Source: an uncultured Gemmatimonadaceae bacterium (GTDB taxonomy: Bacteria; Gemmatimonadota; Gemmatimonadetes; Gemmatimonadales; Gemmatimonadaceae). Taken from it: 64,000 nt of DNA. A program made the translations under genes and the position numbers. The stretch is taken from the NCBI GenBank assembly GCA_963822945.1, contig CAWGJO010000020.1, forward strand, positions 768,001 to 832,000, in the 5' to 3' direction. The notes under the pieces are model-generated. The model ran no database searches, was not told the origin of the DNA, and saw only the letters and a program-made list of their open reading frames with translations. Positions 27,337 through 55,420 of this stretch are shown here, in pieces. Positions within the stretch are counted from its first letter, which is position 1, and every line of letters begins with the position of its first letter.

Positions 27337-30231
<2,895 letters not shown>

Positions 30232-30311
30232 CGTTGGATATCGACGTCGGCGTGGGCGCAAAAATACCCGGGTGGCTTGCCCAGGTCTTCCGCGACCATT
30301 AGGTTCGCCGC

Positions 30312-34425: not shown

Positions 34426-35538
34426 CTAGTCAACCAGGCGCAGTGGCATCACGAGACACATATACTCTCCTTCGCCTGACCAATTTTCTGGTTCCATCGT
34501 AGCCGCACGCTCTGGTGCCTTGAATGTCATTTTCACTTCTTCGGTAGGCATATAGCGTAACATCTCGAGCAGGTAACTCGCGTTGAAGCCAATATCCAGC
34601 GGATCTCCAGTATACCGAACAGCCAATTCATCCTGCGCTTCACCCAGATCAGGTGTTTGAACGCTGAATCGAAGAATTCCAGCATTGAAGGTCATTCGAA
34701 TGCGGTGTGTTTGATCAGAAGCGATAACCGACATGCGCCGGAGAGCACTCGACAGAGCCACTTTATCAACAATAGCCCACTTATCATTATCCCGCGGAAT
34801 CACCTGATCATAGGGAGGATACGGACCTTCAATCAAACGTGTGTAGACAGTTGTGAACGGAGATCGAAATGCCACATGATTGTCTCCCTTCCCAACTTCT
34901 AGCTCCTCATCTGCTGGAAAAAGACGACGAATCTGTTCCAACGCCTTTGGCGGTAGAATCAAGTCTCCCACCATACCTTTCGGAACCTTCATTCCAGCTT
35001 CCATGCGAGCCAGACGATGTCCATTCGTTGCCACCATGGCCATGGAATTCGCTTTCGTCTCCCACAGAACTCCATTCAGAATTGGTCGACTTTCTTCCGT
35101 CGATACCGCAAATGCAGTATGACCGATGAGCTGCTGTAAAGTCGAAGACGGAATCCGCCAATTCTGCGTGAACTTGATTGCGGGATAAGAAGGAAACTCC
35201 TCCTTTGGAAGACCTAGAATCTTGAAATGAGCTCGCCCACAATCCAGGACTAAGCGTTGCTCACCCAATGAACTAATTCTCACAGGAGCGGGTGGTAGTT
35301 CTCGAGCGATATCAATCAATTTCTTCGCCGGCACCGTAATACCACCTTTTTCCTCAACGTCTGCTGAAACCTCCGTACTAACAGCAATATCGAGATCCGT
35401 CGCTGAGAATTGGGCCCCTTTTTCTCCACCTTCAATCAGCAGATTACTCAGAACGGGCAGGGTACTCTTTGGTGGAACCGTAGCTCCAACTGCAGCCAGG
35501 CCCTCCTGAAGCTTTTCCCGAGAGATCGTAAAACGCAT
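34426..35538 (-). CDS. dnaN: DNA polymerase III beta sliding clamp
   Basis: ATDLD, RPILNGV, ATNGHRLA, RLIEG.YP.Y..VIP, IGFNA.YL, VMPLR. Confidence 0.98.
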   Translation of the reverse strand: MRFTISREKLQEGLAAVGATVPPKSTLPVLSNLLIEGGEKGAQFSATDLDIAVSTEVSADVEEKGGITVPAKKLIDIARELPPAPVRISSLGEQRLVLDCGRAHFKILGLPKEEFPSYPAIKFTQNWRIPSSTLQQLIGHTAFAVSTEESRPILNGVLWETKANSMAMVATNGHRLARMEAGMKVPKGMVGDLILPPKALEQIRRLFPADEELEVGKGDNHVAFRSPFTTVYTRLIEGPYPPYDQVIPRDNDKWAIVDKVALSSALRRMSVIASDQTHRIRMTFNAGILRFSVQTPDLGEAQDELAVRYTGDPLDIGFNASYLLEMLRYMPTEEVKMTFKAPERAATMEPENWSGEGEYMCLVMPLRLVD

Positions 35539-35699: not shown

Positions 35700-37115
35700 T
35701 CAGGATTCAATTGATGTTGAGATTGTACCTGGCGTGAGCTCGGAAAGACCCAGAAGCCGACGTGCTGTGTTGTACTTGGACAGAAGTTGCGAGGAGTTTT
35801 GTAGAAGATCTTGAGCTCTGGAGAGACTATGAATGACTGTGGAATGATCACGGCCACCAAAAGCTGCACCGATTTCAATGAGCTGTGTCCGGAGAGTGGT
35901 TCTTGCGAGAAGCATTGCAAGTTGGCGAGGAACCGTAAGCGTTTGAACTCTGGCTTTTGAGCACAAACCCTCAACCGTGACATTCCAAACCTGAGCTATG
36001 ATTTCCTGAATTCGGGAGATGGAGAGAGTTTGAGATTCTACTGCACCAATACTGGTTGATCTGTGCGTTGATCGGAGAGCTTCCTGGGCAAGTGAAACAT
36101 CTATCTGTCGATGCTTGAGTGATGCAAAAGCTAGGATCTTGATGATTGATCCCTCCAGTTCTCTGACACTGGAGTTGATCGTCTCAGCGATGTACTCGAT
36201 AACGTCATGTGGGAACGTAACTTCAAGGTGATCAAGTTCGGCTTTCTGCTGGAGAATTGCAATTCGGTGCTCCACATCGGGTGGCTCAATATCGGCGACC
36301 ATTCCCCATTGAAATCGACTAACGAGTCGGGCCTCGAGTCCTCCAATCTCTGCTGGTGGACGATCACTGGTTAGTACGATCTGGCGGCCGGCTTCATACA
36401 AGGCATTGAAGGTGTGGAAAAACTCGTCTTGTGTTGCTTCCTTCCCCTTCAGGAAGTGAATGTCATCGATCAGAAGAAGGTCTGTTTCTCGAAAGCGGCG
36501 TCGAAACTCAGCATTCTTGCGACTCTGAATCGATGCGACCATTTCATTCGTGAACTGCTCGGTACTGAGATAGGTCACTCGAATATCGGGATGACTGCTC
36601 AGCACCTCGTGTCCAATCGCCTGCATCAGGTGAGTCTTTCCAAGACCGGTGCGGCCGTAGATAAAGAACGGATTGTAGACGCGACCGGGCGCTTCTGCGA
36701 CGGCATGTGCTGCAGCCGCTGCAAGTTCGTTTGACTTGCCTATTACAAAGTGCTCGAAAGTATATCTGTCATGTAAGACTGGCGTATTAGTGACGTTATT
36801 GTGGTGCGCTTGTGTCGCCGGTTTCTCCAGCGTGAAGAAGTCCATCTGAGGGCGCTGCTGACGGTCTTGGTCAACGCTAAAGGCCAGACTGACGGGATGT
36901 CCGAGCGCGACTGGAGCAAATGAGGTAAGGAGCTCACCGTACTTGGACTCGGTCCAATCGCGGGAAAATTGGTCAGGAAGACTGAGCGTCAGGACTCGCT
37001 CATCCCACGAAACGGGTACGATAGGCTCGAGCCATGTGCGCATGACGTCGTCGCCCACAGTGGCCTTGGCTTGGGTGAGAAGCCTGGTCCAAATTTCTTG
37101 CGCTGGAGTGGGCAT
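35700..37115 (-). CDS. dnaA: Chromosomal replication initiator
   Basis: YTFE.FV.G.SN, YNP.FIYG..GLGKTHL, LLIDDI, RL.SRF, RELEG, GGRDHSTV.H. Confidence 0.98.
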   Translation of the reverse strand: MPTPAQEIWTRLLTQAKATVGDDVMRTWLEPIVPVSWDERVLTLSLPDQFSRDWTESKYGELLTSFAPVALGHPVSLAFSVDQDRQQRPQMDFFTLEKPATQAHHNNVTNTPVLHDRYTFEHFVIGKSNELAAAAAHAVAEAPGRVYNPFFIYGRTGLGKTHLMQAIGHEVLSSHPDIRVTYLSTEQFTNEMVASIQSRKNAEFRRRFRETDLLLIDDIHFLKGKEATQDEFFHTFNALYEAGRQIVLTSDRPPAEIGGLEARLVSRFQWGMVADIEPPDVEHRIAILQQKAELDHLEVTFPHDVIEYIAETINSSVRELEGSIIKILAFASLKHRQIDVSLAQEALRSTHRSTSIGAVESQTLSISRIQEIIAQVWNVTVEGLCSKARVQTLTVPRQLAMLLARTTLRTQLIEIGAAFGGRDHSTVIHSLSRAQDLLQNSSQLLSKYNTARRLLGLSELTPGTISTSIES

Positions 37116-37124
37116 AGTTAGTGA

Positions 37125-37133
37125 TGTGGATAA
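37125..37133 (-). promoter_or_regulatory. Perfect DnaA box just upstream of dnaA (autoregulation)
   Basis: TTATCCACA on the minus strand, 9 nt from the dnaA ATG. Confidence 0.85.
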
Positions 37134-52822: not shown

Positions 52823-55420
52823 ATGGCGCCGACTCCGCTGATGCAGCAGTACCAGGAGATCAAAGCGCGCCATCAGAACGCGATCGTGTTCTTTCGCATG
52901 GGTGAGTTCTACGAGATGTTCTTCGACGACGCCGAACTGGCGGCGCGAATTCTCGGGCTGACACTCACGGCACGGAACAACGGCGGTGCTGCGGACGTAC
53001 CGCTGGCCGGCGTGCCCGTAAAGGCGGCCAGCGATTACATCCGACGTCTGGTCGAGCGCGGGCACCGCGTGGCGATCTGCGAACAGGTGGAAGACCCCAA
53101 ACTCGCCAAAGGGGTCGTGCGGCGTGAGGTGATCGAGACCATCTCGCCGGGCGCCGCGCTGGCGGACGATCTGCTGCAGGGCGGCCGGAACAACTTCATC
53201 TGCGCCGTTTACGCCGCGGGTGCCAGGGTCGGTGTAGCCGCGGCCGACATCTCAACGGGCGAGCTGCGCCTGATCATCAGCACGACTACGGATCTCGAGC
53301 CGCTACTCGCGCGGTTGGCGCCGCGGGAAATGCTGGTCGCGCGTGGCGATACGGACGTGCATGCCGCCCGGATTCCGGGTGTCGAGGGAGCGCTGGTCAC
53401 GGAGCGTGAGGGGTGGGAGTTCGACGCCGCCATGGCACGCGACGACCTGGCGAAGGAGTTCGGCGTCCTCTCGCTGGACGGTCTTGGCCTGGAGGCCGAG
53501 GACACCGCCGCGGTCAGCGCCGCCGGCGCGCTCCTCCGCTACCTGCGTGAGCTGCAACCGTCGGGCGTACGACTGGCGCGACCAAGCGTCGAACGGCCGG
53601 GCGGCGTGATGCCGCTGGACGAGATGACACGCCGCAACCTGGAACTCGTCGAGTCGCTGCGCGGCGGCGATGTCGAAGGCACGCTGGCAGGCGTGCTCGA
53701 CCAGACCAAGACCCCGATGGGGGCGCGGCTCCTCCGGCAGTGGATGCTGGCCCCGCTGACCGACCGCGTGCTCATCGAAGCACGCCTGGATGCCGTGGAG
53801 GCGCTCGTTACCGACGCACTGGCCCGCTCTGCTCTGGTCGGAGCGCTGGACGGTGTGCGCGATATGGAGCGGCTGGCGACGAAGGCGGCGCTGGGGCGAA
53901 GCACTCCCCGAGACCTGAAGGCGCTGGGGCTGTCGTTGTCACGTCTTCCGGATGTGCACGACGCCGTGAGCCGCGTGGGCGGCGCCGGAGCACTGGCCGA
54001 GGTGCTCGCGGATTGGGATCCGTGCAGCGAACTCGCCGCCGCAATCGATGGAACCCTCGTCGAGCGTCCTCCGGTGGCGATCGGCGAGGACGCCACGATC
54101 GCGCCGGGGGTGGATACCGAACTGGACGAACTACGCTCGCTGCGTGACGGCGGAAAGGAAGCGATCGCGCGCATTCAGACCGAGGAGCGGGATCGTACGG
54201 GGATCGGGTCGCTCAAGGTCGGCTACAATCGGGTGTTCGGGTACTTCATCGAAGTCACGAAATCCAACCTGCATCTCGTACCCGACGACTATCAACGGCG
54301 GCAGACGCTCACCGGCGCGGAACGATTCGTGACGCCGGCCCTCAAGGAGTATGAGGAGCGCGTCCTGTCAGCCGCCGAGCAGATCGAAGCCCGGGAACGC
54401 CGACTGTTCGAAGATCTCCGAAGCCGCGCGGGCGGCGAGATCACTCGGCTGCAACGGACGGCCCGGATCGTGGCGGTACTGGATGTCCTGTCGGGACTCG
54501 CCGAGACCGCGGCGCGCGAACATTACGTCCGGCCGACGCTGCACGATGGCTTCGACCTGACGATCACCAGAGGCCGGCATCCGGTAGTAGAGCGGATGAT
54601 GCCACGCGACAAGTTCATTCCGAACGACGTCGTGCTCTCCGAAGACGGGCGGGTGATCATCCTGACCGGTCCGAACATGGCCGGCAAGTCGACGATCCTG
54701 CGGCAGGTCGGGCTGATCGTGTTGATGGCCCAGATGGGGAGCTTCGTACCGGCCTCGCAGGCGGCGATCGGAGTGGTGGACCGCGTGTTCACCCGCGTGG
54801 GCGCGAGCGACAATCTGGTACGTGGTCAGTCGACCTTCATGGTGGAGATGGCCGAAACGAGCGCCATTCTGCACAACGCCACCGCGCGGAGCCTGGTACT
54901 CCTGGACGAAATCGGGCGCGGGACCTCCACCTACGACGGCGTGTCGATCGCCTGGGCGGTGAGCGAGCACCTGCACAACCAGACGGGGTGCAAGACGGTG
55001 TTCGCCACGCACTACCATGAGCTGACGCAACTGGCCGATGAATTAGTAGCAGTTCGGAACTATAACGTCGGTGTACGGGAGGTCGGGGATCAGGTGCTGT
55101 TTCTGCACCGCCTGCAGCCAGGGGGGGCCGATCGCAGCTACGGGATCGAAGTGGGACGCCTGGCCGGGCTCCCGGACACGGTGATCGGACGGGCCCGCGA
55201 GGTCCTCCGCTTGCTGGAGGGAGAGCAACTGGTACCGGCGCTCCAACGTCGTGGGCAAGGGGGGCGCGCTTCCGAAGCGCCGTCCACGCCACAACTCGGC
55301 CTGTTCGGCGCCGAGGAGCATCCGGCGGTGAAACAGCTACGGACGGTGGATGTCGACAACCTCACGCCGCTCGAGGCCCTGACGCTGCTGAACGGCCTGG
55401 TACGCCAGGCAAAGGGCTAA
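52823..55420 (+). CDS. mutS: DNA mismatch repair protein MutS
   Basis: TPLMQQY, FRMGEFYE.F, TGPNMAGKST, STFMVEM, DEIGRGT, C-terminal QLGLF clamp motif. Confidence 0.98.
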   Translation: MAPTPLMQQYQEIKARHQNAIVFFRMGEFYEMFFDDAELAARILGLTLTARNNGGAADVPLAGVPVKAASDYIRRLVERGHRVAICEQVEDPKLAKGVVRREVIETISPGAALADDLLQGGRNNFICAVYAAGARVGVAAADISTGELRLIISTTTDLEPLLARLAPREMLVARGDTDVHAARIPGVEGALVTEREGWEFDAAMARDDLAKEFGVLSLDGLGLEAEDTAAVSAAGALLRYLRELQPSGVRLARPSVERPGGVMPLDEMTRRNLELVESLRGGDVEGTLAGVLDQTKTPMGARLLRQWMLAPLTDRVLIEARLDAVEALVTDALARSALVGALDGVRDMERLATKAALGRSTPRDLKALGLSLSRLPDVHDAVSRVGGAGALAEVLADWDPCSELAAAIDGTLVERPPVAIGEDATIAPGVDTELDELRSLRDGGKEAIARIQTEERDRTGIGSLKVGYNRVFGYFIEVTKSNLHLVPDDYQRRQTLTGAERFVTPALKEYEERVLSAAEQIEARERRLFEDLRSRAGGEITRLQRTARIVAVLDVLSGLAETAAREHYVRPTLHDGFDLTITRGRHPVVERMMPRDKFIPNDVVLSEDGRVIILTGPNMAGKSTILRQVGLIVLMAQMGSFVPASQAAIGVVDRVFTRVGASDNLVRGQSTFMVEMAETSAILHNATARSLVLLDEIGRGTSTYDGVSIAWAVSEHLHNQTGCKTVFATHYHELTQLADELVAVRNYNVGVREVGDQVLFLHRLQPGGADRSYGIEVGRLAGLPDTVIGRAREVLRLLEGEQLVPALQRRGQGGRASEAPSTPQLGLFGAEEHPAVKQLRTVDVDNLTPLEALTLLNGLVRQAKG

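Follow-up and report, generated by a model that had tools for sequence, protein, structure and literature searches.

A conserved clamp-binding-type motif in the DnaA linker of Gemmatimonadales and its putative role as a direct link to the sliding clamp

How do bacteria without Hda or YabA prevent re-initiation of replication during elongation? A clamp-binding motif within the initiator itself would be a concrete answer, and the dnaA-dnaN locus of an uncultured Gemmatimonadaceae bacterium offers a candidate. The window analysed here, a stretch of 64,000 nucleotides of contig CAWGJO010000020.1, encodes a chromosomal DnaA carrying the pentapeptide QMDFF, which an earlier note on this DNA had read as a possible motif for binding DnaN, encoded next door; dnaN does adjoin dnaA (Table 1). 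The motif is real and strongly conserved in the order Gemmatimonadales (named here from its homologues, whose names indicate Gemmatimonadaceae), a group that includes cultured genera such as Gemmatimonas. It is a known kind of motif at a place for which we found no description, and its function, judged from sequence comparison, is putative. A literature search of mainly open texts, judged by title and abstract, returned no report of a clamp motif inside a chromosomal DnaA, although a passing mention is possible. The accessible portions of PMC9690074 and PMC3762901 likewise contained none, and the related literature, as far as its accessible text goes, covers Hda, HdaA, YabA and plasmid or transposon proteins.

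The open reading frame is identified as DnaA by profile search (TIGR00362, 498.8 bits against a cut-off of 343.9). It encodes a complete, full four-domain initiator of 471 residues in which domains I, III and IV are all matched (PF11638, PF00308 and PF08299) and the Walker A and B, sensor I, Box VII and sensor II motifs are intact. Translation of the minus strand together with domain mapping bears out the placement of QMDFF at residues 90-94, at the start of the domain II linker. An AlphaFold model of full-length DnaA (112 rows) ends domain I with the strand at residues 76-81, followed by a short helix at 83-86, and has pLDDT below 50 for residues 91-109. A second model, of residues 1-110 (44 rows), has no secondary structure past residue 87, with block means of 66 and 54. 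Given the low pLDDT and the lack of secondary structure in the linker, QMDFF is predicted to be exposed in a disordered stretch just after domain I. The possibility that the motif is a piece of the domain I fold, burial in which the earlier note had named as a refutation, is not supported by either model.

Table 1. Features of the dnaA-dnaN locus and a comparison motif (positions in the window; residues numbered in DnaA).
Feature	Position	Strand	Basis
dnaA, 471 aa	35700..37115	-	ORF, TIGR00362
DnaA domain I, residues 1-81	36873..37115	-	PF11638 match 6-65; last strand 76-81
Conserved basic flank, residues 82-89, with short predicted helix 83-87	36849..36872	-	alignment, two AlphaFold models
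QMDFF, clamp-binding-type short linear motif, residues 90-94	36834..36848	-	translation, conservation, published consensus
Variable domain II linker, residues 95-113	36777..36833	-	mean column conservation 0.36; pLDDT <50 for 91-109
AAA+ domain, ~residues 114-350	36066..36776	-	Walker A (154), Walker B (213), sensor I (249), Box VII (263), sensor II (317)
Domain IV helix-turn-helix, ~residues 366-440	35796..36020	-	PF08299
dnaN, beta sliding clamp, 370 aa, predicted partner	34426..35538	-	ORF, profile match; pocket residues conserved
Perfect DnaA box (TTATCCACA), ten bases upstream of the dnaA start; sole exact match in the window	37125..37133	-	consensus scan
MutS QLGLF, ordinary clamp motif for comparison	55292..55306	+	translation

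Whether Q-x-D-[LF]-F is conserved within an otherwise variable linker, as the earlier note had asked, can be answered in the affirmative for this order. A search with residues 1-140 found Q90, D92 and F94 kept in all of the best 120 of 2867 homologues. Because such a search favours the motif, in-order DnaAs were picked by their ATPase domain alone (PF00308 over 301 phylum genomes, a tally that includes four unpublished genomes; 110 of the best 150 matches were taken, plus 20 DnaAs from the Hda-search list; all sequences analysed come from published genomes). Selected in this way, 68 of 69 genomes of the order, the source genome included and all three families represented, carry Q-[MI]-D-[LF]-F: QMDFF in 45, QMDLF in 21 and QIDLF in 2. 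The reading frame of the single miss breaks right at the motif, and one of the 68 carriers is frameshifted downstream, its motif being read in the other frame. Among 47 aligned in-order DnaAs (pairwise identity 50-99%), the motif has a mean column conservation of 0.94; the AAA+ domain reaches 0.82, domain I 0.64 and linker residues 95-113 0.36. Q90 and F94 are invariant (47/47), as is R88 in the basic flank, where R85 is kept in 42/47. The motif Gln lies 18 residues past G72 of domain I in 45/47, and the spacer between the motif and the AAA+ domain varies from 19 to 34 residues. Synonymous codons are in use throughout (Q90, 11 CAA and 36 CAG; D92, 31 GAC and 16 GAT; F94, 10 TTT and 37 TTC; all six codons for the invariant R88), which indicates selection on the peptide rather than on the DNA and rules out a DNA-level element beneath the motif. 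QMD[LF]F occurs once in the 2.75 million residues of the long open reading frames of the source genome, and a relaxed pentamer arises in 1.2% of shuffled motif-bearing linkers, compared with 47/47 observed.

Bacterial clamp-binding motifs follow Q-phi-x-[LM]-[FL] or a hexameric form, with a slight preference for Asp at position 3. Natural motifs hold only Leu and Met at position 4, where Ile, Phe and Trp inhibited more weakly, and Trp at position 5 weakens clamp binding (PMC11139829). The DnaA motif matches this pattern at position 1 (Q90), at position 2 (M91, if Met is read as aliphatic-like) and at position 5 (F94, Phe or Leu being accepted). It departs from it at position 4, where Leu or Met is expected and Phe stands both here and in 45/68 in-order motifs, Leu being found in the other 23. 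The full consensus is thus matched by 23/68 in-order motifs if Met counts as aliphatic at position 2 (21 QMDLF and 2 QIDLF). QMDFF, and the QMDLW form found in another class, are each off by one position and, by analogy with the published series, would be weaker binders on the Escherichia coli clamp. As a correction to the earlier note, the Phe4 of QMDFF lies outside the published consensus. The invariant elements, namely Q1, a hydrophobic residue at 2, D3, a hydrophobic residue at 4 and F5, are the positions that matter in clamp motifs (PMC11139829). Like other bacterial clamp-binding motifs, the peptide combines these residues in a predicted disordered stretch; it differs from them in that the host protein is the chromosomal initiator and that the commonest form has the off-consensus Phe4. 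Ordinary clamp motifs occur elsewhere in the genome, in DnaE (QGSLF), a DinB-like protein (QLALF) and MutS (QLGLF, as the earlier note had it), and a further likely clamp partner, a DUF72 protein, has QMSLF at its C terminus.

The motif is neither phylum-wide nor universal, being present in 0/47 DnaAs from five families of sister orders and in 0/4 from two families of other classes; family f5 was left out of this sample. A further Gemmatimonadota class, represented by family f10, has Q-[MI]-[DNE]-L-W right after domain I in 11/11 DnaAs. In a quick tree built without the linker, from the AAA+ and domain IV parts of 82 of the DnaAs collected, the order groups with its motif-less sister orders and not with f10. 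On the same quick tree the approximately unbiased (AU) test rejects a single clade of the two Gemmatimonadota motif groups (p-AU 0.009), which implies separate gains or several losses. Motif-less lineages can carry other peptides at the corresponding spot: R-[LI]-[DE]-F-P-E is kept in at least six DnaAs of family f6, a P-x-[VL]-E-[LV]-like peptide is found in part of family f7, and [ED]-L-F-[TQ]-T-P stands at the start of domain II in ten DnaAs of further lineages. These hydrophobic peptides may represent decayed clamp motifs, or they may dock some other partner.

Further afield, 185,579 GTDB species were scanned for Q-L-x-[LF]-F lying 55-75 residues ahead of a Walker A of the form GKTH-[LIM]-M-[QH]. 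This pattern, which misses other variants, gave 61 matches, 12 in frame and 49 out of frame. The canonical motif is thus rare in DnaA, and, as the in-frame share (12/61) is no higher than other frames gave, single matches are often due to chance. Three in-frame lineages were examined further. In Marinamargulisbacteria (UBP8; 10.1101/521922, partial text), 27/31 DnaAs carry a motif just after domain I, 26 as a pentamer and one as the hexamer QISLPF, a pentamer-hexamer interchange that is typical of clamp motifs (PMC11139829). Twelve of these fit the strict consensus (QLSLF, QLDLF, QLELF, QMELF and others), and position 4 is Ile in 12 and Phe in 3. Outside the motif clade, 0/21 remaining DnaAs of the Margulisbacteria sample have it. 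In the family of the termite-gut Treponema match QLGLF is found in 2/30, and the only match among 28 Acidobacteriota DnaAs is a domain I strand. The same-place motifs in unrelated lineages suggest, at the level of sequence, a recurring solution and not a local oddity. Some additional occurrences were observed in passing. Seven DnaAs of a Treponema/Spirochaetaceae subclade have QLGLF late in a long proline-rich linker, and a DnaA in a record titled Alteromonas is nearly identical to one of the class Marinamargulisbacteria, probably through a binning or labelling error. A metagenome scan gave 4/17 matches in frame, two Gemmatimonadales-like and two with EQLSLL from another lineage; in the DnaA of these two contigs EQLSLL directly follows domain I, possibly a further separate case.

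The pocket formed by subsites I and II is intact in the cognate clamp. Its residues were located by motif and offset from the E. coli residues given in the accessible text of PMC11139829, and the 14 positions so placed (R151, L154, T171, G173, H174, R175, L176, P241, V246, N319, Y322, M364, P365 and L366) are invariant in 61/61 clamps of the phylum. Lineages that lack the motif conserve this pocket just as well, which is what one expects of a hub. Upstream of dnaA, the single perfect box (Table 1) was called with the DnaA box consensus, and the eight boxes counted in the window when one mismatch is allowed are within chance, so that no cluster of DnaA boxes marks an origin in it.

The check for hda and yabA that the earlier note had called for detected neither in the source genome, which is 88% complete. 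YabA has no match there, and the three TIGR03420 (Hda) matches all fall below the cut-off: one is DnaA, with 110.8 bits against 194.8, and the others are both domains of a tandem DnaA-like protein. Hda is above cut-off in 0/121 genomes of the order, including two unpublished ones, and in 0/5 genomes of family f10, with a cut-off that passes only E. coli among 14 controls, so that a divergent Hda could be missed. YabA is above cut-off in 0/121 phylum genomes searched and in 0/35 Marinamargulisbacteria genomes. It was likewise not found in the motif-less families, and many motif-less genomes have a single PF00308 match. Because motif-less relatives also appear to be without adaptors, the absence of Hda and YabA allows the idea of adaptor-free control and does not favour it. 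The tandem protein itself, 652 residues with two DnaA-type AAA+ domains, is encoded among chemotaxis- and mglAB-like genes by our reading of the open reading frames (contig C4; locus L031, 8682-10640). It was considered as a hidden Hda and rejected: 12/13 copies are without a clamp-type motif, the exception having a lone QVSLDL; its gene neighbourhood also speaks against such a role, as do several motif-bearing genomes with only one PF00308 match. The protein seems to be widespread in the order, and its copies have the motif EK-[VIMT]-x-W in common at the C terminus.

We propose that QMDFF in the domain II linker would dock into the peptide pocket of DnaN, the beta sliding clamp. We put the probability that DnaA binds DnaN directly through this motif at roughly 0.75, judging from which positions are invariant, from the predicted exposure of the motif and from textbook versions found at the corresponding spot in an unrelated phylum. 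Binding would probably be weak owing to Phe4, as would be appropriate for a regulator that has to leave the polymerase in place. Clamps build up behind forks (PMC4284645, partial text), and those left on newly copied DNA could capture DnaA and so hold it back from firing the origin again, with no need for an adaptor like Hda or YabA. YabA links DnaA to DnaN and stimulates DnaA release from oriC in Bacillus subtilis (PMC13220808, partial text), and thereby provides a negative-control precedent for a DnaA-clamp link. The proposed contact, like YabA, would connect DnaA with DnaN and the replisome; YabA is a separate bridge, whereas here no such protein was detected and DnaA would contact the clamp itself, in effect a YabA-like brake minus the adaptor. 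Such negative feedback at the replisome is the least sure step, and we tentatively favour clamp capture behind the forks, argued by analogy, as the most likely outcome of motif binding, at somewhat less than even odds. The retention of the motif in a freely varying linker, together with similar peptides at the same spot in unrelated groups, leads us to infer that the initiator likely senses ongoing replication directly and not via a helper protein.

A different mechanism, adaptor-free RIDA in the sense of the self-inactivation raised in the earlier note, would have a clamp-tethered DnaA lend its arginine finger to another DnaA-ATP, trigger hydrolysis and so replace Hda. In keeping with it, the AAA+ domain of this DnaA has an intact Box VII and is preceded by a clamp-type motif, and Hda was not found; the RIDA proteins Hda and HdaA of E. 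coli and Caulobacter likewise pair an AAA+ domain of DnaA type with a clamp motif in front of it. They are, however, separate proteins with an N-terminal motif and a second clamp interface, whereas here the motif sits inside a full DnaA after domain I, domain IV is present and the spacer is longer and variable. The Hda motif (residues 6-11) precedes Walker A by 38 residues, and Hda depends on another clamp contact, made via Box VI/VII (PMC5397184, partial text), and also on two clamp loops (PMC13147524, partial text); the corresponding gap in this DnaA amounts to 59 residues and differs by up to 15 from genome to genome. The 'Hda-like architecture' of the earlier note was therefore overstated for a four-domain DnaA whose motif is fixed to domain I and not to the ATPase. 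Its interpretation is upheld as regards conservation, predicted exposure, the intact pocket and the lack of detectable Hda or YabA. Sequestration fits at least as well as self-inactivation, and we consider adaptor-free RIDA improbable. Equally improbable is the broader claim that at least three lineages (Gemmatimonadales, the second Gemmatimonadota class and Marinamargulisbacteria) separately built the replisome sensor into DnaA itself, with clamp-tethered DnaA turning off other DnaA-ATP molecules as a third route beside Hda and YabA.

Clamp binding could also serve a positive role, with origin-bound DnaA recruiting or positioning the clamp for replisome assembly. DnaA domain I handles helicase loading, and the motif keeps its fixed distance from that domain. 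There is a precedent in TrfA of plasmid RK2, which binds the clamp via such a motif and forms with it a complex that has a key part in building the replisome at oriV in vitro (PMC4980987, partial text). TrfA and other plasmid Rep initiators resemble this DnaA in carrying their own clamp motif; they differ in their unrelated fold, their plasmid origin and their positive role, the role here being putative and the protein a chromosomal initiator. All 47 sister-order DnaAs do without the motif despite equally conserved clamp pockets, so that it is not needed for loading in general, and we regard the positive role as unlikely. A contender that is also unlikely, if a little less so, is that the clamp likeness is incidental and the peptide docks another partner: helicase or loader, a protease adaptor, its own domain I or a neighbouring DnaA. 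The off-consensus Phe4 of the order and Trp5 of f10 are compatible with this, as are R88, which is invariant, and R85, which is nearly so, both at a constant distance from domain I; the different conserved hydrophobic peptides of motif-less sister lineages mean that the spot may dock something else. The invariant Gln is hard to account for on such terms, the Marinamargulisbacteria versions include the exact clamp consensus, and neither AlphaFold model has a fold-back. Chance likeness without function, for which the in-frame yield of the GTDB scan could be cited, is very improbable, being already contradicted by conservation in 68/69 genomes at such divergence with synonymous drift. Direct docking of DnaA on DnaN remains the reading that we prefer.

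Two other proteins of the genome were seen to carry peptides of this type. A plasmid-type replication initiator gene (PF10134; large contig C20, 712050-712988, outside the window) encodes QLALF and would be a second initiator-like protein with a clamp motif; its homologues have QLHLF or QLALF in 3/3 genomes tested within the family, and 2/2 genomes outside it gave no match. DNA polymerase I (27337-30261, minus strand) has QGALEL before an apparent low-complexity insert, which could be a hexamer-type clamp motif.
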